A DNA stretch of 64,000 bases from Acidobacteriota bacterium (GTDB lineage: Bacteria > Acidobacteriota > UBA6911 > JACQSX01). The position numbers and the translations under genes are program-made. The notes below the pieces were generated by a model. The model was not told where the DNA came from, searched no databases, and saw only the letters and a list, made by a program, of their open reading frames with translations. Location: the NCBI GenBank assembly GCA_016211105.1, contig JACQSX010000028.1:8635-72634 (forward strand), read 5' to 3'. Below, piece by piece: positions 33,528 through 61,769 of this stretch. Within the stretch, counting starts at the first letter, position 1. Each line of letters opens with the position of its first letter.

Positions 33528-33604
<77 letters not shown>

Positions 33605-38008: not shown

Positions 38009-38347
38009 ATGAAACAACCGAAGACTGTAATTTTTTTGATTCTTTCACTATTCGTTATCGCAGGGTGGGTCGCAACACGGCGGAGCACGATTTCCGCCGA
38101 CGACAAGGCCGCGCAGCCGGCGCAGCTTGAGAAAATAACTTTTAAGGTTCAGGGGATGACCTGTGGAGGTTGCGCCCTGGCAGTAAAGAAGACTCTGGAA
38201 AAACAGCAGGGAGTCCGCAAAGCGGAAGTCTCACTGGAAAAAGGAGAAGCGATTGCCGAAGTAAAAAGAGGCAATGTCAGGCCTGAGGACCTGGCTGATG
38301 CGGTCACCAAGGTCGGGTACAAAACGACGGTGGTAAGGCTCAATTAG
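38009..38347 (+). CDS. Exported HMA-domain metal-binding protein (MerP/CopZ-like, CxxC)
   Basis: Signal/anchor helix; GMTCGGC. Confidence 0.9.
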   Translation: MKQPKTVIFLILSLFVIAGWVATRRSTISADDKAAQPAQLEKITFKVQGMTCGGCALAVKKTLEKQQGVRKAEVSLEKGEAIAEVKRGNVRPEDLADAVTKVGYKTTVVRLN

Positions 38348-38363
38348 TGGAGGATTCGACAAA

Positions 38364-38892
38364 ATGTCTCAGTGCTGTCCTACTGCAGCATCCTCGTGTT
38401 CAAACACTCAAGCGATGGAACGCCGCCTGGGAATTTGTCCCGAGTGCGGCAACAAGGGAACGAAAGTCCAACCGATTACGGTGCAAAGCCTGGTCCGGCC
38501 GGACCGCCACGTGGGAATCCAGGAAACCCAGTATCACTACTGCGCTACCCCTGAATGCGATGTCGTGTACTACTCGAATAGAGCCGATCTCGTTTTTCAG
38601 AAAAGAGATCTCACCGTCCGCATAGGAGCTAAGGAAAACGTTGATCCCATCCCTGTGTGCTATTGTTTTGGACACACGGAGCGATCCATCCAGGACGAAA
38701 TTGAAAGCACAGGCAGTTCCTCTGCCGAGGAAAAGATACGCGCCGAAATAAAGGGGGGGCAACTGCGCCTGTGAAAGGACCAATCCTGCGGGAACCTGTT
38801 GTCTGGGAGACGTGCGAGCCGTGACCCGACGTTTGCTTCACAGGAAAGCGGCCGCAGAAGATCGTTGCACTATTACGTGTGCGAAGATGTAA
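38364..38892 (+). pseudogene. CopZ N-terminal-like Zn/2Fe-2S protein, frameshifted at a G7 run
   Basis: CPEC, YCATPECDVVY, VCYCFG; after G7 (38753-38759) the shifted frame gives NCACERTNPAGTCCLGDV, matching paralog 52642. Confidence 0.82.
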
Positions 38893-40455: not shown

Positions 40456-40834
40456 GCGTTTCAATCTCTTGATCATGTCATCCCTGATGACGGCCGCAAG
40501 CTTACTCGTGTTGGCCCAACAGAGCGTCTCGCCACAGCAGAAGGCCGCCGTAAGCAAGGCAATCACCGACTATGTACAAAGGGACCAGCAGTTAAAAGGG
40601 GCTTTCCTGGTTAAGGATAAGAAAGCGGGAGCCGTGCGGGAGTTGAAATTCGATCACGTACATTCAGGTGTTGATAAAACGGCAGACGGCCGATATGTGG
40701 CGTGTGTAGATTTCAAGCAGGGAAACAAAGTGCTGGATGTGGACTTCTATCTGAAGCCCGCTACGTCTGGGGAGTTGCAGCTATCAGACATTCGTATCCA
40801 CAAGATTGATGGCAAGGATGTCTCCGGGGAATGA
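40442..40834 (+). CDS. Exported hypothetical protein
   Basis: ATG 40442, signal peptide; YVACVDF..LDVDFY. Confidence 0.7.
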
Positions 40835-43140
40835 GAAAACCGAAGTACCTGAGAATCACAGGCGTCGTCATCCTAGCTGGAGCCCTTGCGCTGGCCGTTG
40901 GATTATTTCTGCGCCAGAGGGTTGTGGGACAGGAAAAACCCCTGACACAGCCCGGCGCAGTGGCATCCTCTGGGTACCAGAGCACTGAGGTAGGTGCTGG
41001 CAAACCAAATCGGCTCATTGATGAGAAGAGCCCCTATCTGTTGCAGCATGCCTACAATCCGGTGGATTGGTATCCGTGGGGTAGCGCCGCCTTTGAGAAG
41101 GCGCGCAAAGAGAATAAGCCGATCTTTCTGTCGGTGGGCTACTCCACTTGTCATTGGTGTCACGTGATGGAACGCGAGTCGTTCTCCAATCCCAAAATCG
41201 CCGTCATCATGAACAAACATTTCATCAGTATCAAGGTGGACCGCGAGGAAAGACCGGATATCGATCACGTTTATATGACTTTCGTGCAGGCCACAACCGG
41301 GGGCGGTGGTTGGCCTATGTCCGTTTTCCTGACTCCCGAACTGAAACCTTTCTGGGGCGGGACCTATTTTCCCCCCGATGCGCGAAACGGAATGCCCGGA
41401 TTTCGCCAGATTCTGTTGAAGGTGGCGGAACAATGGGAGAGCAATCGGGGGGCCGTCGTCGCTTCGGCCGGGAGAGTTACCGAAGCGCTGAAAAATTTGC
41501 GCGACGCCCCCGGGGACGAGAATGTGAAGCTGGGAAGAGAACTGTTGGACAGGACCTACCAGTGGTACGTTTCGACCTACGGCGCGCGAAATGGAGGTTT
41601 TGAAGCAGCCCCGAAGTTTCCACGGCCCGTCAATTTCAATTTCCTGCTGCGCTACCATGCCCGGACCGGGCAGAAGAAGGCTCTGGAGATGGCAACTCAT
41701 ACCCTGCGCAAGATGGCCGACGGCGGGATCCATGACCCCATTGGTGGAGGATTCCATCGTTACTCTACCGACGAGCGTTGGTTTGCTCCTCATTTTGAAA
41801 AGATGCTGTACGACCAGGCGCAACTGGCCATCTCCTATCTGGAAACTTATCAACTCACCAAGGAGCCTTTCTTCGCAGCCGTAGCTCGAGACATTTTCGA
41901 ATATGTCCTGCGGGACATGACGGACCAAGAGGGTGGTTTCTACTCGGCCGAAGATGCCGACAGCCCTGTCAGCTCCAGCAATCGCGACCAGCAGGCAGAA
42001 GGGGCCTTTTACGTCTGGACCCATCAGGAGATCGCTGCCCTTCTCGGCAATGATGCGGCGATTTTCGAGCACCATTATGGAGTAAGGGAGAGCGGAAACG
42101 TCGAGCGGGATCCTTTTGGAGAATTCAAGAATAAGAGCATTCTTCATGTTGCTTCCGGACTGGAACAGACGGCGCAAAGGTTCAAAAAGCCGGCGAGCCA
42201 GATCAAAGAGATTCTGACCCGGGGCCGGCAGACACTGTTTCAGGCCCGGGCAAAGCGCCCGCGTCCTCATCCGGACGATAAGGTTCTTACCGCCTGGAAT
42301 GGCCTGATGATTTCAGCCTTGAGCAGGGGTTATCAGGTCCTGCGAGAAGACAGGTATCTCAAGGCTGCTGAAAGAGCTGCGTCCTTTGTCACCGGCAGGC
42401 TCTATGACCAGCAATCAAAGCTTCTCAAGAGGCGCTACCGAAAAGGTGAGGCGGCTATCGCGGGGATGTTCGACGACTATGCCTTCTTCACCCAGGGACT
42501 GCTTGACCTGTATGAGACGTCGCTCGACGGGCGCTGGCTGATAGTTGCGATGGAATTGACGGAAACACAGAACCGGCTTTTCTGGGACGCTGGAAAGGGT
42601 GGGTTTTACAACACGACGGAAAAAGATCCTTCCATTCTGATTCGTCTGAAAGAGGACTACGACGGGGCTGAGCCTTCGCCCAATTCCGTGGCAGTATCGA
42701 ACCTGTTGCGCCTGTCTCAAATGTCCGACAACAGGAAATGGCGAGAGGTGGCGGATAGATCGATCAAGGCTTTTGGAAAACGCCTGTTCGAGAGCCCGCA
42801 GGCAATGCCGCAGATGATGGTGGCGGTAGATTTCCACCTAGACAAACCCCGACAGATTCTCATTGCCGGCGACAGAAACGCGCCCGACACGAAGGCCATT
42901 GTGCGTGAGATACACAGGCGATTTATTCCCAACAAGATCTTGGTTCTCGCAGACGGTGGAGCAGGCCAGCAGCGGCTGGCCGCAACTCTTGACATCTTGA
43001 ACAGCCTACGCCGCATTGACGGCAAAGCCACCGCTTACATTTGCGAGAACTATGTCTGCCACCGGCCTACCAACGAGTTGGCTGTGGTCGTCCAATTGCT
43101 CGATGGAAAGGGCACCATACGGAAACGAGGTGAGGACTGA
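40831..43140 (+). CDS. YyaL/SPATA20-like thioredoxin-domain protein (exported)
   Basis: [43 protein letters not shown]. Confidence 0.93.
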
Positions 43141-43208
43141 GCCAGTGCTGGTCGCCAAAAGATGAAAATACTCTCCGAGAACACGATCGAGTTCATAGAG
43201 GAAATCTT

Positions 43209-44279
43209 ATGCAGAACTTGGAACACAGAAGGGGTGTTCTTCAGAGGCCCTATCTCATTATTCTGGGCGCCGCTGTGGGACTCACCATGGTCCTTGAGGG
43301 TTGGGCTCTCATGCAGGAGGACAGGCTGGTAATCAATCAGGCATTGCTAGCAGCTCTCCCGCTGCTTCCGCTTCTGGTGGGCCTGACCCTTTGGGCTGTC
43401 TCGCCGCTCACTCCAGGCGGCAAGCGTAGAAAATGGTGGAACTGGCTTCTGCATTGGATAGGGGGAACCGCTGCTGTACTTGTTGCCGTCGTCGTGGTCC
43501 ACCTGGCATGGGTTTTCATGTTTCCTTACCACACTGCTGTGGCTTCCAATCGGCAGACGCTCTCAGTCGCCGACGCCTATAATTATCGCCACTTTGGCTA
43601 CTCCTTCTATGTCCGCGGAAAACAGCGCCGCGTCGCGGAGGGTCAACACGTACTGGACGAGACATTGACCAACCTTCAAGGTAACAGAATTCAGCTTTCC
43701 AGCCTTTGGCAGGAAAGGCCAATCGTGGTGGAGTTTGGCAGCATTACCTGTCCCGTGTTTTGCGGCAAGATTGCGTCGATGGAGGAACTGGCCCGCAAGT
43801 ACGCAGGAAAAGCAAATTTCTACGTGTTGTACGTCAGGGAAGCCCATCCGGGACAGAATTACCCAGCGCACCGAAGCTTCACACAAAAGTTAAACTACGC
43901 TCACGCTCTGGAACGTCTGGAAAAGGTCGAGCGCACGATCTTGATCTATGATCTGGAAGGAACAATGAACCGGGATTACGGCGCGATGCCCAATTCTGTG
44001 TACGTCATTGGAAAGGATGGAATAATCGCCTACCGCGCGGACTGGAACGATCTTGCCCAAGTCGAAAGAACACTTGAGGCTGTCTTGGGAAGTGGCGGCA
44101 ATGCGGCCGGCATTTGGCCGACCGGGATGCAGGACAACTTCGTGAAAGTAGATACTGGAGTTTTGGGTGGGTCTTTCAGGGTCCTGAGACGTTCGGGGTT
44201 TGCCGCCGTTGCAGACTTTGTCATGTCCTTTCCGAGTATGTCGATGGGGCGTGTGCAGGGAGGACGGTCCAGGAATTGA
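43209..44279 (+). CDS. Membrane-anchored deiodinase-like thioredoxin-fold protein (Cys form)
   Basis: 3 TM; PIVVEFGSITCP, YVREAHP, YGAMPN resemble iodothyronine deiodinase motifs. Confidence 0.8.
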   Translation: MQNLEHRRGVLQRPYLIILGAAVGLTMVLEGWALMQEDRLVINQALLAALPLLPLLVGLTLWAVSPLTPGGKRRKWWNWLLHWIGGTAAVLVAVVVVHLAWVFMFPYHTAVASNRQTLSVADAYNYRHFGYSFYVRGKQRRVAEGQHVLDETLTNLQGNRIQLSSLWQERPIVVEFGSITCPVFCGKIASMEELARKYAGKANFYVLYVREAHPGQNYPAHRSFTQKLNYAHALERLEKVERTILIYDLEGTMNRDYGAMPNSVYVIGKDGIIAYRADWNDLAQVERTLEAVLGSGGNAAGIWPTGMQDNFVKVDTGVLGGSFRVLRRSGFAAVADFVMSFPSMSMGRVQGGRSRN

Positions 44280-44324: not shown

Positions 44325-44657
44325 ATGAAACGAAGGGATGTACTGTATTTTATGGGTCTTTCAGTAACAGGGCTTCTAACTCTTCGAGGGTTTGCCCAGG
44401 AAGAATCGGGTAAAGAGAAGAAAGAAGAGGTTGTAACGTTGGCTATCACCGGCATGACTTGAGATTCCTGTGTCCAAACGGTGCAGTCTGCACTGGAATC
44501 GGTTAAGGGGGTCAAAGAAGCCAAGGTATCGCTGGAGGATAATGAGGCGGTGGTGAAATTTGACCCGAGCATGGCAAAGGTCGAGGATCTCATTAAAGCC
44601 GTCAAAGATGCCAAGGGGATGAACCGCTACGACGCTGAGGTCAAAAAGAAAAAATAA
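44325..44657 (+). CDS. Predicted selenoprotein: Tat-type exported HMA protein, GMT-U-DS-C (110 aa)
   Basis: AGGAGG RBS, MKRRDVL leader, in-frame TGA 44460-44462 at first Cys of the HMA motif, intact HMA domain to TAA; not in ORF track. Confidence 0.88.
44463..44500 (+). promoter_or_regulatory. SECIS-like hairpin
   Basis: Upper stem CGGUGCA/UGCACUG with GUC loop, 23 nt between UGA and loop; lower GAUUC/GAAUC. Confidence 0.7.
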
Positions 44658-45417: not shown

Positions 45418-45801
45418 TTGAGCCATAGTCATGCGGATAAATGGGGACCGTTGGGCAGCATTTTTGCCGCTCTCTGCTGCTTGGGAGCGGCGCCTGCCTT
45501 AGCCGCGGTCTCCGCGTTGGGCTTGGGTTTTTTAATTAACGACATTATTCTGATTCCGCTCCTGGTGGTCTTTCTTGGCGCGACGATCTGGGCTCTCCGG
45601 AGAGATCGCAGCCGCCACGGGCGCACGGGACCGCAACGGCTTGCTTGGCTGGCGTCGCTTTTTACCGTGAGCGGTCTCTGGGTTTCCGGCGTGGTCGTGA
45701 GTTTGGGACTCATTCTGCTGGTGGCGGCCTCGATTTGGAATGTCGTTGTTACCTGGCAAACAAAATTCCCCCTTGACTCCGTACCTAAGTCCAGGGTTTA
45801 G
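45418..45801 (+). CDS. MerC-like membrane mercury transport protein
   Basis: TTG start with RBS; ADKWGPLGSIFAALCCLG; near-identical paralog at 53346. Confidence 0.75.
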   Translation: MSHSHADKWGPLGSIFAALCCLGAAPALAAVSALGLGFLINDIILIPLLVVFLGATIWALRRDRSRHGRTGPQRLAWLASLFTVSGLWVSGVVVSLGLILLVAASIWNVVVTWQTKFPLDSVPKSRV

Positions 45802-45804
45802 ACT
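45773..45804 (+). promoter_or_regulatory. MerR-type promoter/operator
   Basis: TTGACT-CCGTACCTAAGTCCAGGGTT(20 nt)-TAGACT; left half resembles the mer operator TTGACTCCGTAC. Confidence 0.8.
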
Positions 45805-45825
45805 CAGTTTGAAAGGAGAACGAGG

Positions 45826-46257
45826 GTGAACGGGCTGACTATTGGACATGTAGCCAAGCAAGCGGAGGTCCACGTTGAGACGGTCCGCTATTACGAGCGA
45901 CGCGGAATCCTGCCGGAGCCAGCGAGGAGCCCATCTGGCTACCGTCAGTACGACACAGAAACGGTGCGGCTTATTCGGTTCATCAAGCGCGCGCAGGACC
46001 TCGGCTTCACACTTGGCGAGATCAAGCAGTTAATTGAGCTTCGGAGAAACTCCAGGCGGAACAGATCCGCCGTAAGCGCACTTGCGACGGCAAAGCTCAG
46101 TGACATCGACAAGAAGATTCTCCAGTTGCAGGCGATGCGAAAAGCACTCGAACTTCTTGTTGATGCTTGCGCTTGCAAAGATCATAAGCTGGACTGTCCG
46201 ATCATCGAAGCGCTCAACGACGACGAAAAGGGAATGATCATCAAAAAGGAGAAATAA
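45826..46257 (+). CDS. MerR-family metal-responsive regulator 1
   Basis: VETVRYYERRG, FIKRAQDLGFTL, loop CACKDHKLDCPII. Confidence 0.93.
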   Translation: MNGLTIGHVAKQAEVHVETVRYYERRGILPEPARSPSGYRQYDTETVRLIRFIKRAQDLGFTLGEIKQLIELRRNSRRNRSAVSALATAKLSDIDKKILQLQAMRKALELLVDACACKDHKLDCPIIEALNDDEKGMIIKKEK

Positions 46258-46259
46258 CA

Positions 46260-46526
46260 ATGAAAAAACGAAGTGTTGAATTATTTACAGCAGCATGTCC
46301 CTGTTGTGACGAGACGATAAAGCTCGTCCAGGGCATGGTTTGTCCTAGCTGTGACGTTCAGATCCATGACATGCGTTCTGACAAGGCTGCTCAGGAGAAG
46401 GCAAAACAATACGGCATCGGCAGCGTTCCGGCGGTCGTGGTCGACGGACGACTGGCTGACTGCTGCTTGGGCCGGGGTGTCAGGGAAGCATCCCTGCGCG
46501 CCGCCGGCGTCGGCGTCCCCCTGTAG
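46260..46526 (+). CDS. Small Cys-rich thioredoxin-fold protein
   Basis: ELFTAACPCC, CPSC, YGIGSVPAVVVDG, CC. Confidence 0.82.
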   Translation: MKKRSVELFTAACPCCDETIKLVQGMVCPSCDVQIHDMRSDKAAQEKAKQYGIGSVPAVVVDGRLADCCLGRGVREASLRAAGVGVPL

Positions 46527-46606
46527 AAAACTGACAAATGAAGAAAATCTTGCACTGCGGACCGCCGCAGGGTCGAGGCGGCAGTGATCAATAGGGCTTT
46601 TTTACC

Positions 46607-47098
46607 ATGAGGAGTGATGTGAAAATGAATACCAGGACATTTCGACAGGACCTCGGCGCTACCTTAAGCGGCGGCTTGCGGCGGGCCACGGTGAGTGAAA
46701 TTCTCTCGGTCTACGGCGCCCTTCTTAGCTCGTTCGCCACCCTGGTTTGTTGCGCGCTGCCGGCACTGTTGGTTTTGCTCGGATTTGGAGTGACAAGCGT
46801 TCTGACTTTTTTAACGGCGATCCCAGGGTGGCAAGACTTCTCCAGCTACGAAATTTGGCTGTTTCCGCTGAGCGGAATCTTGTTGGCTGCGGGCTTTTAT
46901 TTCGCTTACTTTCGCCAAAACCCAGCCCAAGGTGAGGTTTGCGAAATTGCAGGGGGAGGCCAGGAAAGCGCCTGCTCTACCACCACACGCTGGAATCGCC
47001 GGCTTCTTTGGTTCTCAGTTTTCCTCTATAGCCTAGCCTTGGTAACAAACTTTTGGGGAATCGGTTGGATGAAAGCTCACGGGTACTTTGATCGCTAA
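46607..47098 (+). CDS. MerT-like membrane transporter
   Basis: TLVCCALP in TM1, CEI..SAC loop, 3 TM. Confidence 0.75.
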   Translation: MRSDVKMNTRTFRQDLGATLSGGLRRATVSEILSVYGALLSSFATLVCCALPALLVLLGFGVTSVLTFLTAIPGWQDFSSYEIWLFPLSGILLAAGFYFAYFRQNPAQGEVCEIAGGGQESACSTTTRWNRRLLWFSVFLYSLALVTNFWGIGWMKAHGYFDR

Positions 47099-47116
47099 GT
47101 ACCTCGAGGAGACCAC

Positions 47117-48031
47117 TTGAAAACAAAAAGATGGGTTATGTCTTTTCTGCTTTTGGGTTGCGTCGGACTTGCAGACCCAGGGCTGCGGGCCCAGGCGATC
47201 ATGGCGCCGAGTGGTAGAACGCTATTTAGCGGCGCGACTTTGGTGCGCTCGTTTGCTCAAGTCAACCACTTTGCCCTTCGCTCCGATGGAGATTCAAAGG
47301 AGATCACCCAGTACATTACGCCCCTTGCTGTTGTTTATGGGTTTCATCCTAAATGGACGGTCGTCGTGGCTCAGCCGTATGTAACCGTAGACATTACCAG
47401 CCACAGGGGGGATGAAACGCGACGAGAAAACATAAACGGTCTCGGCGATTCGCAGATGTTTATTCAATATGATGGGATTTATAGCCGCAACACCCCGGGA
47501 GGGCTGACCCGGCTCTCCGGTATTCTTGGTCTCCAGGCGCCCACGGGCGCACGACGGTTCTCCACCGGCGCTTTCGAATACACCGGGGGGCTAATTTTCG
47601 AAAAGCAGGCGAACTTGAAATATGTTTTCACTGCTGATTTTGAATACACCTTCGCTACTGAGAATGATCGCGGATTAACAGTGGGCGACCGAGCCAGGTT
47701 TGATGCCGTGCCAGGGTACTTTGTTATTTCTCGGGAGAAACCTCTTCCGGATGCGAGCTGGCTCCGGAAGGTCTATGATCGGGCGTTTCGCGACGGGGCA
47801 TATTTCATTTTGGAATTCAATGGCGCCTGGCAGGCCCATGCTCGTAGCCAGGGGACTGGGGTTGCCAACTCCGGCGGAACCACACTTTCGATTTCACCCG
47901 GCATCCAGTATTTTCCAGGCCGCAGCTTCTTGATCGAGTTTTCTTACGCGATTCCGGTGGCCAGGGAGCTAAATGGGACACAGCCCGAGCTGGAATCAAC
48001 TTTTCTCTTTGGTTTCCGCTATCTGTTTTAG
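47117..48031 (+). CDS. Outer-membrane transporter-like protein (MetA-pathway/SphA-type barrel)
   Basis: Signal peptide, GLGD, LQAPTG, NSGGTTLSISPGIQY, C-terminal YLF. Confidence 0.75.
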   Translation: MKTKRWVMSFLLLGCVGLADPGLRAQAIMAPSGRTLFSGATLVRSFAQVNHFALRSDGDSKEITQYITPLAVVYGFHPKWTVVVAQPYVTVDITSHRGDETRRENINGLGDSQMFIQYDGIYSRNTPGGLTRLSGILGLQAPTGARRFSTGAFEYTGGLIFEKQANLKYVFTADFEYTFATENDRGLTVGDRARFDAVPGYFVISREKPLPDASWLRKVYDRAFRDGAYFILEFNGAWQAHARSQGTGVANSGGTTLSISPGIQYFPGRSFLIEFSYAIPVARELNGTQPELESTFLFGFRYLF

Positions 48032-48085
48032 GTTCTGAATGAAACTCAGGGATGAGACAAGCAAGTCTTTTAGGAGGGTTTAATC

Positions 48086-48598
48086 ATGCGAAAGATAATC
48101 AGCCTGTGGCTTCTATTCGTGTCTATAAGCTTTCTTTCCACAGTGCCGGCCGCGGCCCAGGTGGTGAAGGCTATGGTCAAAATCAACGGCATGATATGAG
48201 GCCTCTGAGCTAAAGGGGCTCAGAAGGCCCTCGAACGCCTGGATGGCGTTGATCACGCAGAAGTGAATTTGGTAAAGGGAGAGGCGCAGGTCGTTCCCAA
48301 ACAGCGACAATCCTTCGATCCCATCCTAATTCCCAAAGCGGTCAGTGAAGCGGGCTTCACAGCACCTGAGGTCGTTGTGACCGTTGACGGGACTCTGATC
48401 AAGGGTGAGGAATTTCCCGAGCTGAATGTACCTGGGCTCGAACACTCATTTATGCTTGCTGGCGGAAAACAGGCCGCGGTGCTCGGAAAGCGCACCGACC
48501 TTACCGGGAAGAGAGTCCGTATAAGTGGCAAACTCCATCCCAGCCACGGCGACGCCCTACCAGGTCTAACAGTTGAAAACTTCCAGGTGGCGCCATGA
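48086..48598 (+). CDS. Predicted double-selenocysteine exported HMA protein, GMI-U-GL-U (170 aa)
   Basis: AGGAGG RBS, signal peptide (AAA-Q), in-frame TGAs at 48197 and 48206 at both Cys positions of GMxCxxC; same frame as ORF 48263-48598. Confidence 0.85.
48200..48252 (+). promoter_or_regulatory. Tandem hairpins (candidate SECIS elements) after the UxxU codons
   Basis: 12-bp stem 48200-48229 enclosing the second UGA; AACGCC-UGGAU-GGCGUU with 31 nt between second UGA and loop. Confidence 0.55.
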
Positions 48599-48741
48599 CT
48601 GCAAGGACTAAAAAATCTGAGAGTCAAGGTAGCAGGGACGTGCCTGCTATCCAGAAGCTCGAGGAATCTTTGCGTAGCCTGCATTTCTCGCAAGATTTGA
48701 ATGCGACTGGAAGCTGCTACATCCCCGCTCGTTGGCTGGTG

Positions 48742-48851
48742 GTAGAGACGCCCCGGCGGGGCGTCTCTACGATATCGACATCGCCAAGTGAGTTTTCACA
48801 GAGTAAACACCCTGGCATTCGCTCCAACAGGAAATGTTTTGTGAGAAATGC
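48742..48851 (+). repeat. About 110-bp REP-containing repeat, copy A (inverted copy at 61624-61732)
   Basis: GTAGAGACGCCCCGGCGGGGCGTCTCTAC hairpin plus about 80 bp of shared flank. Confidence 0.85.
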
Positions 48852-48854
48852 GGC

Positions 48855-49250
48855 CTAGCGAGGCAGCAGAGGCCGGATCAGCTCGACCGGGACACCAAAA
48901 TTACTCCCCGCAAAACCAGCCAAGATAGCGAAGTTGATACCAATGACTTCCCCCCGAGAGTTGAAGATCGGTCCGCCGCTGCCTCCCTGTGTCGTCTGGG
49001 CGTCGTAGACCAGCCGGTCGGGGAGCACATCTCCAAGGTGTCCTTGAGTGGCGATAGGACGAATCAAGTTGCGGCGAGCCAGCGCCTGCGCCAGTTGTTC
49101 CAGACTGGAAGGTCCTTAGGAAATGACACTATCGATGGTTTGCTTGCTGTAGCGGGCCAGCATAGCTTCATAGCCGGCTGGATACCCCAACAGCAGGATC
49201 GGTTCCCCGGACCTTGGTTTAGCCCCGGACAAACTCAATACGGTTCGACG
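48855..49250 (-). pseudogene. Trypsin-like serine protease C-terminal fragment with in-frame TAA
   Basis: LLGYP..YDAQTTQGGSGGPIFNSRGEVIGIN; stop at 49116-49118. Confidence 0.78.
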
Positions 49251-51415: not shown

Positions 51416-51904
51416 ATGAAGACAGAAAGGGCTATGAGACAAGGGGTATATCGCATCGGAGACGTTGCCAAGGAACTGGGTCTGACGCCCCAGGCGCTTC
51501 GCTACTACGAACAGGAGGGGCTTATTCCTAAACCTCAGCGAACGCCATCGGGCTATCGAATCTTTTCCGAAGACGCTCGCGCGCGATTGTTGTTTTTGAA
51601 ACGTGCCCAGCAGTTCGGCTTCAAACTCGACGAGATCAAGACTTTATTGGGAGTGAAGGCCAACCGCCGTGGCTCCTGTGCACAGGTCAAATCGCTGCTG
51701 GATGCCAAGCTGGTTGAGCTGGAGGAGCGATTCAAGCAGATAAAACAATTGCAAACCGATTTGCTGCGATTGCGAAAGGAGTGTGAAGCAGCCTTTTCCG
51801 TCGATGCCTCCTGTCCGGTGATCATAGATTTTGCCAAAGACGTTTCCGGCAGTGTCAGCGCGCAAAACATTCCCAAGAGACGGCGAGAGATTTCGTCTCT
51901 ATGA
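51416..51904 (+). CDS. MerR-family metal-responsive regulator 2
   Basis: ALRYYEQEGL, GSCAQV (third Cys present), CEAAFSVDASCPVI; start 51416 or 51434. Confidence 0.93.
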   Translation: MKTERAMRQGVYRIGDVAKELGLTPQALRYYEQEGLIPKPQRTPSGYRIFSEDARARLLFLKRAQQFGFKLDEIKTLLGVKANRRGSCAQVKSLLDAKLVELEERFKQIKQLQTDLLRLRKECEAAFSVDASCPVIIDFAKDVSGSVSAQNIPKRRREISSL

Positions 51905-52236
51905 GCGATAAGCCTATTTTGTTTGGAGCATTAATCGCATCCTTTACCGCCTCGCTCTGTTGCGTTTTGCCGGTCGCCGTAGCGGTGCTGGGAATCGGTA
52001 GTGTCAGCGCCGCGGCGATCTTTGAGGGCTTCCGCCTGCCACTGTCGCTGCTGACCTTTGCATTGCTGGGAGTTGGGTTTTATTTTAACTATCGTCCGGC
52101 GAAGGAAAAGTGCGAGCCAGGAAGTGCCTGCGCCGTTCCCGCCCACCGAAGGCGCACCCGGATAATTCTGTGGCTGATCACATTGGCGGCACTGGCGTTT
52201 CTTGCATTTCCCGACTACTCAAGGTTCTTGGTCTAA
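51901..52236 (+). CDS. merT: MerT-family transporter
   Basis: ASLCCVLP, CEPGSACAVP, 3 TM. Confidence 0.82.
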   Translation: MSDKPILFGALIASFTASLCCVLPVAVAVLGIGSVSAAAIFEGFRLPLSLLTFALLGVGFYFNYRPAKEKCEPGSACAVPAHRRRTRIILWLITLAALAFLAFPDYSRFLV

Positions 52237-52260
52237 GACTTCGTTTTGAGGAGAGCGTTT

Positions 52261-52596
52261 ATGAAAGGACTCAGTATTAGCATTTTCCTGTTACTGGTGT
52301 TGGGGCTGGCGGCCTGGGTGACTCTGCGACCCACCCCGGCGTCCAGCGACGACAAAGCCGCGGGTTCTCCGCAGTTGGAAAAAGTGGTTTTTAAGGTGGA
52401 AGGGATGACTTGTGGTGGCTGCGCTATGGGAGTGAAAAGGACCCTGGAGAAGCAGACGGGAGTGCAGAAGGCGGAAGTTTCCCTTGAAAAGGGCGAGGCG
52501 ATTGCCGAAGTGGAAAAAGGTAGGGTCAATCCCACAGCCTTGGCCGCTGCGGTAACTCGGTTCGGATACAAGACCACAGTGCTGAAAGTCAACTAG
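52261..52596 (+). CDS. Exported HMA protein (MerP-like, CxxC)
   Basis: GMTCGGC; paralog of 38009-38347. Confidence 0.9.
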   Translation: MKGLSISIFLLLVLGLAAWVTLRPTPASSDDKAAGSPQLEKVVFKVEGMTCGGCAMGVKRTLEKQTGVQKAEVSLEKGEAIAEVEKGRVNPTALAAAVTRFGYKTTVLKVN

Positions 52597-52641
52597 TGTC
52601 CCGGGACACTAGCGGTCGTCTTGTAAAGAGGAGAAGAAGAA

Positions 52642-53196
52642 ATGTCAGATTGCTGTTCTACCGCTTCGCCGGCTGCGAGCCGCTCAGCGAGGATTTGTCC
52701 CGCCTGCCAAAACAAGGGAAAACCAGTGCAGCTCATTACCGTGCGGAGCCTGGTGCGGCCGGAACGTAGGCCAGAAATTCAAGAAATCCAGCACTACTAT
52801 TGTCCCACGCCCACTTGTGACATTGTGTACTTCTCGGCCGCCACAACTTCTCGCTTTCATAAGGACAATCTCACCGTCCGCGTGGGCGCCAAGGAAACTG
52901 TCGACCCCATCCCAGTCTGCTACTGCTTTGGACATACGGAGGGATCGATCCATCAGGAAATCGAGGCCACGGGAAAGTCGTCTGCTGAGGAAAGCATACG
53001 GGCCGCCATTAAGGCGGGAGAGTGTACCTGCGAGACAAGCAATCCAGCAGGCGCCTGCTGCTTGGGCGACGTTCGAGCTGCGATCGACCTTTGGCTTCGT
53101 AAGATAAATGCTCGCTACCAGAGCGAGGAAGTGATGACAGCAGTGGACAACAGAACCAGCGCCGCATGTTGTGAACCAACACAATGCAGCCGGTGA
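52642..53196 (+). CDS. CopZ N-terminal-like Zn/2Fe-2S protein
   Basis: CPAC, YCPTPTCDIVYF, VCYCFG, CTCETSNPAGACC. Confidence 0.85.
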   Translation: MSDCCSTASPAASRSARICPACQNKGKPVQLITVRSLVRPERRPEIQEIQHYYCPTPTCDIVYFSAATTSRFHKDNLTVRVGAKETVDPIPVCYCFGHTEGSIHQEIEATGKSSAEESIRAAIKAGECTCETSNPAGACCLGDVRAAIDLWLRKINARYQSEEVMTAVDNRTSAACCEPTQCSR

Positions 53197-53345
53197 CAGT
53201 TCTTGCTCGGTGGTCCTCGGTTGGCTTCAATCGAGTGGGCAGGGTAGCCGCACAAAGGTCGACGAAGCGACAATTAGGGACAAAGCTGAAATACGTTCGT
53301 CCCCGGCTTGCCTGCTAAGCTGCAAAAAGGAAGGGGAGAAATGAT

Positions 53346-53717
53346 ATGAGCGAAGTTCACGCAGATAAGTGGGGACCCCTGGGCAGTATCTTCGCCGGCC
53401 TCTGTTGCCTGGGAGCGGCGCCTCTTCTGGCGGGCCTGTCAGCCTTGGGATTGGAGTTTTTGATTCATGATACAATTCTGATTCCTCTGTTAATCTTCTT
53501 TCTCGGCGTGACGATTTGGGCACTGCATCGAAATCGAAGCCGCTGCGGCACTGCTGGGCCCCTGTGGCTGGTGTGGCTCGCGGCTGTTCTTACGCTGGGG
53601 AGCCTCTGGATCTCTGGTGTGGCAGTAGGCCTGGGACTGCTTCTTTTGGTATCGGCTTCGATCTGGAACGCAATAGCAACCAAGCGTTGTGAACCAACGA
53701 GAGGAATGATCAGCTAA
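53346..53717 (+). CDS. MerC-like membrane mercury transport protein
   Basis: ADKWGPLGSIFAGLCCLG, 4 TM. Confidence 0.78.
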   Translation: MSEVHADKWGPLGSIFAGLCCLGAAPLLAGLSALGLEFLIHDTILIPLLIFFLGVTIWALHRNRSRCGTAGPLWLVWLAAVLTLGSLWISGVAVGLGLLLLVSASIWNAIATKRCEPTRGMIS

Positions 53718-53767
53718 GCGGGTTAGCAGGCTCATGCCGACAATGATTTAGGATTTAGGAAGAACCG

Positions 53768-54351
53768 ATGAGCCCTGAAGAAGTCAGTACCACACAGGCG
53801 CCGAGGTATGGCCCGAGCACCATTCACGCGGGTCTAGTGCTGTTTGCTATCGTGGGAGCCCTGGTTGTGTACAAGTGGGAAACAGCTGTTGGGATCCTTC
53901 AAAATGTTAGCGCCACAGGCGTGATGCCGACGCGGGCTGATGTTATTCCACTTGGTCGTGCTTCCGACAGTCTCGATCGATGAATTATTTCGCTGTCATC
54001 TGGCCCGCATTGCTCTTTGGTATCCTCATTGGTGGGAGTGTTCACGCATTTGTTTCTCCGCACTGGTTGACACGGGCACTGAGTGGCAGTCCGGGCCGAG
54101 CCCAGCTTGCCGCTGGGCTCGCTGGAACGCCGCTGATGCTTTGTTCCTGCTGTGTCGCTCCAATTTTCACAAGTGTATACGAGAGAACGTGGCGTTACGG
54201 TCCATCGTTGGCAGTGATGCTGGCCGCTCCTTCGCTAAATCCTGCGGCGCTCACCCTTACATTCATGCTTTTTGGACTCCGCATTGGGACTATGCGTGTG
54301 GCAATGGGGATCGCAGCCGTCTTCTTGATGGGAACGGTGTTAGATCGATAG
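53768..54351 (+). pseudogene. DUF318/ArsP-like permease, frameshifted and truncated
   Basis: Frame change near 53975; GTPLMLCSCC, LAAPSLNP; ends after about half the usual length. Confidence 0.7.
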
Positions 54352-54494
54352 GAGAATTCCAGAAATCCGCTTTACTCCCCCATTCCGTTTGTGAATGGTA
54401 GTTTGTGGACAGTATCCGGAATGACAACTCGCACCGGGCCAGGAAGTGTCACCTTCAAGATGGAGGTGAAATAACTCAACCGAGGGGAAGGCCA

Positions 54495-54626
54495 ATGATT
54501 CTTGCGCAGATGGAACCAATGGGCGGAATGAGGGGCATGATGTGGGGCATGTCTATCTACTGGGTCTTAGGCTTAGTCGTATTAGTTCTGCTGATCGTTT
54601 TGCTCGTGAAGATGATTCGGAAATAA
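54495..54626 (+). CDS. Small Met/Gly-rich single-TM protein
   Basis: RBS; MILAQMEPMGGMRGMMWGMSIYWVLGLVVLVLLIVLLVKMIRK. Confidence 0.55.
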   Translation: MILAQMEPMGGMRGMMWGMSIYWVLGLVVLVLLIVLLVKMIRK

Positions 54627-54825
54627 AGCGGCGATCTGTGGTTAGGTCGACTCTTTGGTGGAGCGGTTGCGCTATCACAATATGGCTGCCGGCGGTCTGT
54701 GGGTCGGCTCCGGCGGACCTCACGGCGGATAACAGCCGTGTGAGTTGTGGTCCAAAGCAGCGAAAAAATCGCCTGGGCAGAATCCTGAGTCCTCCAATGG
54801 TATTTAAAAGGAAGGAGATAGCCAC

Positions 54826-56487
54826 ATGAGGAATCGCAAACATAGTACTCTGCGAATCGAAGGTATGACCTGCGACGGCTGCGGGCGCCACGTCATAGCC
54901 GCGCTTAAAGCTGTGCAGGGAGTCGAAGAAGCGCAGGTTGGAAACTGGCGCTCCGGACGAGCTACGGTTATTTCCGACGAGAGCGCCGAGAGCAGAGCGC
55001 TCGTGGGAGCGGTGGAGAAGGCAGGCTATCGGGCCGTGCTCGAGGAACATCGTCCCCTGGAGGGGCAGAGTCGCGTGCCTTCTAGTAAGGAAGAATTTGA
55101 TCTGATGATTGTCGGTGGAGGGTCTGCGGCCTTTGCAGCCGCCATCAAAGGCGCAGAACTGGGCGCCAAGATCGCTATCGTTGAAAAGGGAACCATTGGC
55201 GGTACCTGCGTCAACATCGGTTGTGTTCCATCCAAGACACTCATCCAGGCGGCCGAAATCTGCTATCACTCGTCCTATTCCGATTTTGAAGGGCTCACGG
55301 CCTGCCCGCCTCCGTCAGATTGGCAGCGGGTGGTGCGGCAAAAGGATGAACTCGTTGCTGCTCTACGTGAGGAGAAATACGTTCATGTTGCCGAGTCTTA
55401 CCCCAATATCAAGATCATCAAGGGACGCGCGAAACTGCTGGGCGGGCGTCAGCTTGTTGTGGATGGCCGCACCTACACCTCGGAGAAAATTCTGCTTGCC
55501 ACTGGATCGCAACCGTGGGCGCCGGATATTCCGGGTTTGAAAGAGGCAGGATTTCTGGACAGCACCGACGCTTTGAGCTTAACCGCGCTTCCTCAATCCA
55601 TGTTGGTGATAGGAGGGGGCTCCATTGGATTGGAGCTGGCCCAATTATTTTCCCGTTTTGGCGTGCGCGTCATGGTGATGGAAAGCGGTCCGCGCGTCGC
55701 AATGACTGAAGAACCCGAGATCGGCGACGCGCTAGTGAGATATTTGGAAAGTGAAAAAATTCGCATTTGTGCCGATGTGAAGATCGAAAGCGTTGAGTAC
55801 AAGAATGGCGACTATCGCGTTCATGCAGTTATCGATGGTCACGACGAAGAATGTGTGGCCGAGCAGTTGCTGGTCGCAACTGGCCGTCGCCCTGTGACGG
55901 CTGGGTTAGGTCTCGAACCGGCCGGCGTAAAGGTCGGGGTTAAAGGGGAAATCCAAGTGGACGAACATTTGCAGACCAGCAATTCAGACATCTACGCCGC
56001 AGGCGATTGCATCGGCGATCCTATGTATGTCTATGTGGCTGCTTACGGTGGAGGACTAGCGGCTGAAAACGCGCTCAATGGAGCCGGCAAGGTTTACGAC
56101 CTGTTTGCGCTTCCTCATGTCACCTTCACCGACCCGCAGGTCTCCAGCGTCGGTTTGACGGAAAAGCGGGCAAAGGATTCAGGTTTCAAAGTGAAAACTT
56201 CCACGCTGCCGTTGAAGCATGTGCCCCGAGCACTTGCTTCCCGTAACATCAAGGGGCTGATTAAACTCGTGGCCGAAGAAGACACGCAACGGATCCTGGG
56301 CGCCCATGCGATGGCCGCCAGTGCCGGCGAGATCATCCAGGAAATGACGCTGGCCATACGATTTGGTCTGACCGTGAAAGATGTTGTGGAGACATTCCAC
56401 CCCTACTTGACTATGGTGGAAGGGATCAAGTTGGCAGCGCTCACCTTCAGTCGTGACGTGGCAAAGCTTTCCTGCTGCGCAGGCTAA
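54826..56487 (+). CDS. merA: Mercuric reductase with N-terminal HMA domain
   Basis: GMTCDGC; GGTCVNIGCVPSK; FHPYLTMVEG; C-terminal LSCCAG. Confidence 0.96.
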   Translation: MRNRKHSTLRIEGMTCDGCGRHVIAALKAVQGVEEAQVGNWRSGRATVISDESAESRALVGAVEKAGYRAVLEEHRPLEGQSRVPSSKEEFDLMIVGGGSAAFAAAIKGAELGAKIAIVEKGTIGGTCVNIGCVPSKTLIQAAEICYHSSYSDFEGLTACPPPSDWQRVVRQKDELVAALREEKYVHVAESYPNIKIIKGRAKLLGGRQLVVDGRTYTSEKILLATGSQPWAPDIPGLKEAGFLDSTDALSLTALPQSMLVIGGGSIGLELAQLFSRFGVRVMVMESGPRVAMTEEPEIGDALVRYLESEKIRICADVKIESVEYKNGDYRVHAVIDGHDEECVAEQLLVATGRRPVTAGLGLEPAGVKVGVKGEIQVDEHLQTSNSDIYAAGDCIGDPMYVYVAAYGGGLAAENALNGAGKVYDLFALPHVTFTDPQVSSVGLTEKRAKDSGFKVKTSTLPLKHVPRALASRNIKGLIKLVAEEDTQRILGAHAMAASAGEIIQEMTLAIRFGLTVKDVVETFHPYLTMVEGIKLAALTFSRDVAKLSCCAG

Positions 56488-61623: not shown

Positions 61624-61732
61624 GCATTTCTACCAAAACATTTCCTGTTGGAGGGAATCCCGGCGCGTTTACTGTGTGAAACACACTTGGCGATGTCGAT
61701 ATTGTAGAGACGCCCCGCCGGGGCGTCTCTAC
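61624..61732 (-). repeat. About 110-bp REP-containing repeat, copy B
   Basis: Reverse-complement match to 48742-48851. Confidence 0.85.
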
Positions 61733-61769
61733 GCGTCTCTACCAGCTGGTTAGGCGGCCTGGCGTTGCT

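Follow-up and report, generated by a model that had tools for sequence, protein, structure and literature searches.

A mer-like operon of an Acidobacteriota bacterium that pairs an outer-membrane barrel with a predicted UxxU selenoprotein and may serve mercury uptake

A five-gene operon was analysed in a stretch of 64,000 nucleotides of an Acidobacteriota bacterium (contig JACQSX010000028.1 of assembly GCA_016211105.1, positions 8,635 to 72,634), hereafter the window, whose numbering is used throughout. With a probability of roughly 0.55, the operon is an accessory capture and uptake relay of the Hg(II) type that feeds MerA, a reading based on the MerT homology of one of its products, its mer-like operator, its mer neighbours and the affinity of selenium for mercury; Hg(II) as the substrate, the inward direction, the physical hand-offs and the contact between barrel and HMA protein are inferred. 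In such a relay, the operon's own MerR-family sensor would switch on the module at a promoter with an over-long spacer of 20 nt, a barrel of the COG4313/FapF fold would admit soft-metal species through the outer membrane, and a periplasmic analogue of MerP with a diselenolate U-x-x-U loop (U, selenocysteine) and an extra OB-fold domain would capture the metal. The metal would then be moved inward by a remote MerT homologue that has CC within the membrane and a cysteine pair in a cytoplasmic loop; on the inside, a cytoplasmic thioredoxin-fold protein with a CPCC motif would take it over, to be reduced by MerA, whose gene lies 6 kb downstream. The two UGA codons of the MerP analogue, 9 nt apart, would be decoded as selenocysteine (Sec) with one or both of the hairpins downstream of them. 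The features are as follows, with the evidence for each.

45773..45804, + strand: MerR-type promoter/operator (sequence; resembles the annotated merT operator region and is kept in locus L039)
45826..46257, + strand: MerR-family metal-sensor regulator, 143 aa (Pfam MerR_1, NCBIfam and PDB alignments)
46260..46526, + strand: thioredoxin-fold cysteine-rich protein, 88 aa (PF13192, Thioredoxin_3)
46607..47098, + strand: remote MerT-family inner-membrane protein, 163 aa (BLASTP against the PF02411-positive MerT of the window)
47117..48031, + strand: outer-membrane beta-barrel, 304 aa (PF13557, AlphaFold2 model, Foldseek)
48086..48598, + strand: predicted exported HMA and OB-fold selenoprotein, 170 aa (open reading frame with two TGA codons read through, HMA match, AlphaFold2 model)
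48215..48231, + strand: hairpin A, conserved (RNA folding and alignment of related loci)
48234..48250, + strand: hairpin B, conserved (RNA folding and alignment, with Cys-type homologues as control)
48742..48851, no strand assigned: repeat element with a 29-nt palindrome at 48742-48770 (raised metagenome read depth)

The open reading frame (ORF) of the HMA-OB protein is open only if TGA 48197-48199 and TGA 48206-48208 are read through to the true stop, TGA 48596-98. The read-through product (...INGMIUGLUAKGAQKAL...) begins with a signal-peptide-like N-terminus and places the metal loop G-M-I-U-G-L-U within a Pfam HMA match of 42.7 bits. The genome, which is 93.6% complete, encodes SelB (361.9 bits), SelA (522.8), SelD (360.1) and a tRNA-Sec with a TCA anticodon (72.7), all of which score over their curated cut-offs. 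Both TGA codons recur at the same two alignment columns in 12 loci of other genomes; among 14 metagenome contigs they do so in 13, the remaining one not being resolved. The variants found at these columns are CxxU (HR10), UxxC (two loci) and CxxC (six loci, as C-P-F-C). The bacterial selenoprotein hallmarks of a UGA at the Cys position of homologues, a downstream stem-loop, and SelA, SelB, SelD and tRNA-Sec are all present. The original prediction of a protein with two selenocysteines is supported by the Sec machinery of the genome, a TGA pair kept in 25 related loci, the Cys-type homologues and the covarying hairpins described below, and the predicted reading of both UGA codons as selenocysteine holds on this sequence evidence. 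The SelD gene (contig C12 of the same genome, 36750-37670) has one in-frame TGA of its own and probably encodes a selenoprotein as well. A second Rfam match to tRNA-Sec, considered as a second UGA-reading tRNA, proved to be an ordinary tRNA-Ser with a TGA anticodon.

It is highly improbable that the five genes are accidental neighbours in a scrambled island, or that the TGA codons are true stops in a broken or split HMA gene. The surrounding DNA is indeed a patchwork of gene fragments and public gene callers end at the TGA codons, but the neighbourhood is kept in several gene orders across many genomes, the read-through protein is predicted to fold confidently, and the TGA pair is conserved, with an open frame on either side, alongside Cys homologues and a full Sec machinery; on these last four observations the TGA codons were rejected as stops and the gene as a pseudogene.

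Two hairpins 3′ of the UGA pair were predicted by RNAalifold with no structure supplied. Hairpin A (GGGGC...GCCCU) lies 18 nt past the first UGA, and in the window it extends to 48198-48231, starting at the base after the first UGA and taking in the second (-22 kcal/mol, z -3.4). Hairpin B (AACGCC UGGAU GGCGUU) begins 28 nt past the second UGA; its CGCC/GGCG stem core and both G residues of its loop are invariant in 22 of 22 sequences, and its stem pairs in 98.7% of alignment cells with covariation at two pairs. Over both hairpins, 97.2% of the cells of 22 distinct sequences pair; sliding the 3′ partners by 1-3 columns lowers this to 29-48%. In four pairs both sides change (12 cells), and none of 500 shuffles reaches the observed covariation. 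Six Cys-type homologues retain only 3-8 of the 12 hairpin pairs, and in one of them, L044, the R-L-D-G-V stretch is unchanged as protein but uses other codons.

The distance from a UGA to the apical loop of its hairpin is expected to be 16-37 nt. By distance, hairpin A would suit the first UGA and hairpin B the second. According to the accessible passages of PMC13582414, a bacterial selenocysteine insertion sequence (SECIS) is a stem-loop shortly past the UGA that has a G at one of its apical loop's first two positions; hairpin B has such a G in its loop (U-G-G-A-U) and is on this basis a candidate SECIS. An Rfam scan of the window at gathering thresholds returned a tRNA-Met only and no SECIS family. 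The same 2026 paper, on UxxU hydrogenases, leaves open in those passages whether one SECIS serves both codons, and no description of a double hairpin for UGA codons 9 nt apart in bacteria was found in the literature searchable without journal subscriptions.

The AlphaFold2 model of the HMA-OB protein has a predicted local distance difference test score (pLDDT) of 91.2, rising to 98 across the loop region. Its HMA domain is matched at Z 11.2 (Z 8.0 against MerP, 1afi), and residues 96-170 form a five-stranded barrel of the OB type with OB matches at Z 7-8.4 (NigD-like/DUF1344 at 8.1-8.4, PriB/SSB at about 7.2), middling values that speak for the fold only. All of the gene identities originally proposed for the operon hold, including that of the HMA protein with two selenocysteines, except that this extra OB-fold domain had been missed. 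The protein falls outside the curated families nearest to it: it scores 43.4 bits against NF041115 (cut-off 95), and although it has the HMA fold of MerP it scores 32.3 bits against TIGR02052, which demands at least 92.55 plus a signal peptide and only one HMA domain, bearing GMxCxxC. Its HMA domain finds its best NCBIfam match in a CopZ model (48 bits, cut-off 85). In public databases the family is listed as fragments of about 110 aa, the gene callers having stopped at the TGA codons. Searching with the last 111 residues as query yielded 38 proteins, and of the 36 inspected, 35 start past the loop and the only one recorded at full length carries W at each of the two positions. When 1.84 billion representatives were searched by profile, 333 proteins came out at E <= 0.001; the best 150 of these include 43 full-length CxxC proteins (all weaker than E 8e-11), 105 proteins without the loop (median 111 aa) and one with W-x-x-W.

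A second putative exported HMA selenoprotein is encoded upstream of the operon (44326-44657, + strand), with the loop G-M-T-U-D-S-C (TGA 44460-62) and a score of 66.8 bits against NF041115, also under the cut-off of 95. About 20 nt past its UGA is a small hairpin (44481-44493, stem GUGCA/UGCAC, loop GUC).

The barrel protein has a signal peptide, ends in ...FRYLF and scores 35.7 bits against PF13557 (cut-off 22). Its AlphaFold2 model (pLDDT 80.8) was matched by Foldseek to FapF (5o67, E 8.6e-11, template-modelling (TM) scores 0.66/0.69) and to a COG4313 protein (4rl8, E 5.1e-10, TM 0.63/0.71), with the next fold class appearing only at E > 1e-6. From the PF13557 match and the 4rl8-like model, the protein is predicted to be an outer-membrane channel of the COG4313/FapF fold. 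It has 183 homologues at E <= 1e-10; its profile found no match among PDB sequences at E <= 1, and a single-protein scan of the genome_contigs set found one weak, unrelated match (Blautia, 29% over 103 residues). Modelling barrel residues 27-304 together with the isolated OB domain gave a complex score of 0.00, which speaks neither for nor against a contact.

Related loci were retrieved with the narrower of two alignments, A2, since A1 had no conserved stretch; the locus sets partly overlap, the related genomes are not independent of each other, and no claim is based on the unpublished genome G015. The barrel gene is directly upstream of the HMA-OB gene in five of five genome_contigs loci (Blastocatellia, HR08, HR10 and two metagenome-assembled genomes of Acidobacteria). 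In a sample of the phylum, the HMA-OB profile is found in 19 of 401 genomes, including the genome of the window, and a barrel match lies within about 1.5 kb at 13 of 20 foreign loci; a PF13557 ORF in L044 raises this to 14 of 20, and one of the other six (L051) ends at a contig edge. Among metagenome contigs the barrel is upstream of the HMA-OB gene in 12 of 14, with one ending too early and one without a barrel. The loci that contain the pair are mostly from Acidobacteriota. The barrel, HMA and MerT-like genes had been proposed for a synteny search, with a barrel that never accompanies HMA or MerT genes elsewhere as the refuting outcome; the search found the pair adjacent at these rates and MerT-like genes recurring with it, and thus does not refute the original claim.

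Gene orders vary between regulator-Trx-HMA-barrel, HMA-MerT-like-barrel and barrel-NHL-HMA, and the inner-membrane slot is filled by a CC MerT-like protein (L029, L031, L152, L155-157) or by a small W-C-U protein (HR08, HR10). Genes for merA, merT, merP or merC are found in the flanks of L028-L031, L145, L147, L150 and L155-157. The W-C-U protein of HR08 and HR10 (L028 5080-5900, L030 4990-5800) is a membrane protein of two helices, the first of which contains W-C-U, and is encoded between regulator and barrel; a TGA stands at its end, and a short exported cysteine-rich peptide precedes it. L027 and L029 have in its stead a protein of about 47 aa with C-P-D-P-x-C-G-C-E and C-C-C-G motifs. In L037 (1306-3069) the UxxU HMA-OB frame runs without a stop into a BNR-like propeller of about 400 aa, just downstream of an NHL propeller gene. 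Remnants of merA lie directly upstream of the module in L029 (4331-4504, the last 58 residues) and L031 (4282-4677, an N-terminal HMA fused onto the final 110 residues of merA), placing the module at rearrangement scars in both, as in the window.

The strict pairing of barrel and HMA-OB genes, whatever else accompanies them, is also what would be expected if the barrel were a dedicated FapF-like translocator that brings the HMA-OB selenoprotein to the cell surface, or anchors it there, to trap soft metals on the outside. The best structural matches of the barrel are FapF polypeptide transporters, the OB domain has no role in classical MerP, and a diselenolate is chemically better suited to capture than to hand-off. 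The COG4313 structure matches equally well, however, and the MerT-like and MerF-like genes in mer-type modules suggest onward transport, leaving an external trap improbable.

The relay would continue through the MerT-like and thioredoxin-like proteins. The 163-aa protein has no Pfam or NCBIfam match and no PF02411 match at E <= 0.01, short of that family's gathering score; against the PF02411-positive MerT of the window it aligns at E 1e-11 (BLASTP, 34% identity, 58.7 bits) with both cysteine pairs in register; the first predicted helix contains CC, and C-x10-C falls in the loop ahead of the last helix. The atlas assigns it to 'MerT' clusters at 0.95, and orthologues of 58-68% identity are found in L029, L031, L152 and L155-157. 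Judged by its sequence, the protein is a remote homologue of MerT. The 88-aa protein scores 27.9 bits against Thioredoxin_3 (PF13192, cut-off 24.8), has the CxxC near the N-terminus that is typical of this family, and is assigned by the atlas to Thioredoxin_3 clusters at 0.97. No signal peptide was found in it by inspection. Its cysteine motifs are CPCC (residues 13-16, the usual active-site position), CPSC and CC; its homologues, which are present in modules L027, L031, L039 and L052, have CPLC or CPIC.

The promoter consists of TTGACT (45773-78), a 20-nt spacer and TAGACT (45799-804); GGAG and, at 45826, the GTG start codon come next. Its operator is an imperfect dyad, ACTCCGTAC (45776-84), CTAA and GTCCAGGGT (45789-97), in which six of nine positions match per arm. 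The reference for comparison was the annotated divergent merR/merT-merP locus of Ralstonia plasmid CP059377.1, the merT promoter of which shares the hexamers and the 20-nt spacing and is identical at 28 of 34 positions across promoter and operator. The left half-site, TCCGTAC, is identical to that of the annotated merT operator, as the original prediction had claimed for the left half, and the right half-site is identical at five of seven positions. A near-identical element precedes the regulator of L039 (a distant Acidobacteriota locus whose regulator is 49.6% identical), although the flanks have diverged. Promoters activated by the MerR family are recognised by -35 and -10 elements 19-20 nt apart with a dyad between them, features that predict such a promoter here.

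The regulator scores 68.2 bits against Pfam MerR_1 and is under the NCBIfam cut-offs for both MerR (TIGR02051, 135.6 bits, cut-off 150.85) and CueR (TIGR02044, 128.3 bits, cut-off 147.4); among PDB structures it matches MerR at 89 bits (4ua1) and 87 bits (5crl) and CueR at 73 bits. MerR is defined by three metal-binding cysteines, one before the dimerisation helix and two in the C-terminal loop, and CueR by two loop cysteines and a serine in place of the third cysteine. The C-terminal loop of the window regulator, C-A-C-x6-C-P, contains two cysteines with MerR spacing and one extra cysteine. In alignments to solved MerR and CueR structures the cysteine before the dimerisation helix is absent from it, and a serine sits one column off the serine of CueR. 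With this cysteine missing and a score under the cut-off, the protein is outside TIGR02051, the family of MerR Hg(II) sensors. The nearest annotated plasmid regulators, 48-51% identical to it, are named Hg(II)-responsive merR. In sister modules all three cysteines are present in the regulators of L019, L039 and L040, and the loop cysteines are missing from the regulators of L027, L028 and L030.

A regulator of this kind might instead be a CueR-type sensor in a module for Cu(I), Ag(I) or Au(I), in which a periplasmic diselenolate chaperone buffers the ions or hands them to the barrel for release. Its CueR score is close to its MerR score, it has two or three loop cysteines and none at the third-ligand position, and its closest plasmid 'merR' precedes a P-type ATPase; the operator with arms ACCTTGCAG and CTGCAAGGT in L027, L028 and L030, the P-type ATPase directly upstream of the barrel of G007, and the CopZ model that best matches the HMA domain, albeit under its cut-off, point the same way. 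Even so, such a module is rather unlikely, given its homologue of a MerT-family importer, its mer neighbours, an operator that matches the mer operator, and no ATPase or RND (resistance-nodulation-division) pump in or beside the operon in this window. The MerT-like and thioredoxin-like proteins would then be buffers on the cytoplasmic side, an equally unlikely role.

The five ORFs are all on the + strand and are separated by gaps of 2, 80, 18 and 54 nt, confirming a claim that they are co-directional and closely spaced. Scanned against the promoter consensus, the operon shows no sigma-70-like promoter in its interior (0 versus 1.6 expected); the scan assumes standard spacers of 16-18 nt and does not detect the MerR-type promoter with its 20-nt spacer. 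Terminator-like sites are not above chance (6 versus 4.3 +/- 2.6 expected), each of them falling within a gene. The five genes are inferred to form one transcript, the end of which is possibly marked by the repeat element that begins 144 nt past the operon stop. An ORF at 48595-48858 (87 aa) that overlaps the stop of the HMA-OB gene has no family match, and no tblastn match in any related locus, and is probably not a gene. The regulator is, as first described, not divergent but the first gene on the same strand; this arrangement is not unusual here, as the second mer operon of the window also starts with merR.

That second operon is complete and begins 3 kb downstream (51416-56487, + strand), in the order merR-merT-merP-like-CopZ_Nterm_CC-merC-merA. 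It encodes MerT (PF02411), a MerP-like HMA protein, a 2Fe-2S-type metallochaperone (CopZ_Nterm_CC, 134 bits versus 100), MerC, an unassigned 153-aa ORF, and a MerA with an N-terminal HMA domain (TIGR02053, 568.4 bits versus a cut-off of 454.45), which lies 6.2 kb downstream of the five-gene operon. The claim that the operon has no reductase or ATPase of its own is accurate for the reductase within the operon proper, but a MerA is within reach in the window and MerA-like genes or their remnants flank the modules of relatives.

A number of observations weigh against an Hg(II) relay. A diselenolate should bind Hg(II) more tightly than the thiols of MerT, which would make the HMA-OB protein a trap rather than a relay. 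The window already has a full merT-merP-merC set. The regulator lacks the third cysteine of MerR and does not reach the cut-off for either MerR or CueR, and the operator of L027, L028 and L030 is a different one, a perfect palindrome (ACCTTGCAG N4 CTGCAAGGT) that is presumably CueR-like. In L034, L036, L037, L043, G006 and G007 the pair is accompanied by an NHL propeller and by no MerT-like gene, which indicates that barrel and HMA protein are not tied to import, and the pair of G007 follows a P-type ATPase. Finally, COG4313 channels have been linked, in the available part of PMC4493636, to the uptake of hydrophobic molecules.

A broader proposal is also offered, tentatively: the barrel and the diselenolate HMA-OB protein could be a conserved, unannotated outer-envelope device of Acidobacteriota that strips soft metals, mercury first, off strong external ligands, and that is made with two tandem SECIS hairpins, one for each UGA. 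Its downstream handlers would vary, being perhaps MerT-like protein, thioredoxin and MerA here and NHL propellers elsewhere.

The DNA around the operon is rich in metal genes and in scars. HMA and zf_CopZ genes lie at 38009-38774, and a DUF255 thioredoxin and a deiodinase-like gene at 40831-44279. Between 44732 and 45801 is a patchwork of gene fragments: a C-terminal piece of DoxX (- strand), the last third of the HATPase_c domain of a histidine kinase, and the N-terminus of a response regulator (57 aa) fused in frame to a MerC without its first codons, in an ORF whose stop falls inside the -10 element of the operon promoter. Fragments of a Trypsin-like protease follow downstream of the operon. 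The SecY encoded in the window is nearest to SecY of metagenome-assembled genomes of Acidobacteria, at 77% and 75%. The window stretch is contained in four DNA runs of one groundwater metagenome study; in run X1, possibly the source sample itself, one contig spans 43000-47325 without a difference and bridges the junctions of the patchwork. The repeat element at 48742-48851 recurs at 61624-61733 as a 110-bp inverted repeat, 90% identical, that starts with the 29-nt palindrome. In the four metagenome runs its depth is 748-1049 versus about 32-46 (some 20-30-fold over the flanks) and many contigs break off at 48740 or 48770, which suggests a high-copy element resembling repetitive extragenic palindromes or miniature inverted-repeat transposable elements. 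A tRNA-Met gene (33528-33604) followed by Fic, nucleotidyltransferase and ParE-toxin genes to about 37600 precedes the metal genes in an island-like arrangement. No integrase, repeat of the 3′ end of the tRNA-Met gene or G+C step marks the borders of an island in the window. MerB (PF03243) was not found in the genome of the window, a result of little weight as the control matched in no genome.

The operon looks like an undescribed add-on to mercury resistance. If the relay exists, it would extend the textbook mer pathway by a step at the outer membrane and by a binding site based on selenium, and would do so in a phylum with an abundant presence in soil and groundwater. The HMA-OB protein would offer a natural metal site with two adjacent selenocysteines and Cys-type sister proteins for comparison, and its gene would be a test bed for the bacterial decoding of closely spaced UGA codons. 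Surveys of mer genes and of selenoproteomes miss this family because gene callers shorten its members to 'hypothetical proteins' of about 110 aa. No paper on the barrel and UxxU HMA-OB pair or on the OB domain was found in the literature search, and the accessible text of a survey of mer diversity (PMC8261052) does not contain the word selenocysteine and names the outer membrane once, in a figure legend.

Among known systems, the barrel is nearest to Pput2725 of COG4313 (PDB 4rl8, as described in the available part of PMC4493636) and to FapF (5o65/5o67), with which it shares PF13557 and which are its two best structural matches, but it is only about 15% identical to them; known members of these groups take up hydrophobic compounds or secrete amyloid subunits, and no metal context was found for them in the literature searched. 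The HMA-OB protein resembles NF041115 ('UxxU_metal_bind', which appears in the table passages of two reviews, PMC9312934 and PMC13188914, as 'putative mercuric reductase, UxxU') in having an HMA domain with two selenocysteines predicted in the metal loop, but the NF041115 model has 74 positions and no OB domain, and the HMA-OB protein scores under its cut-off. No barrel partner is mentioned in the NF041115 description or in those table passages. Selenium in mer-type transport has a precedent in MerT-family selenoproteins with a C-U pair and in the MerT/CopZ fusion selenoprotein NF045683 (available part of bioRxiv 10.1101/2022.07.06.499078), and the W-C-U protein of HR08 and HR10 occupies the position of the window's MerT-like protein; in the window, however, the MerT-like protein has CC, and the predicted selenoprotein is its soluble HMA-OB partner, with no fusion. 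The closest parallel is the MerP-MerT relay (TIGR02052, PF02411), in which an HMA protein with a signal peptide is likewise paired with a three-helix membrane protein that has CC and a cysteine pair in a loop, and the mer operon itself, with a MerR-family sensor at an over-spaced promoter, an operator region identical at the 28 of 34 positions noted above, and merA nearby. The window operon departs from this model in that its counterparts of MerP, MerT and MerR are all under the curated cut-offs, in that its HMA protein has U-x-x-U rather than C-x-x-C and carries an OB-fold domain, and in that, unlike the mer locus of CP059377.1, it includes a barrel and a thioredoxin-fold protein and begins with its regulator instead of being divergent from it.

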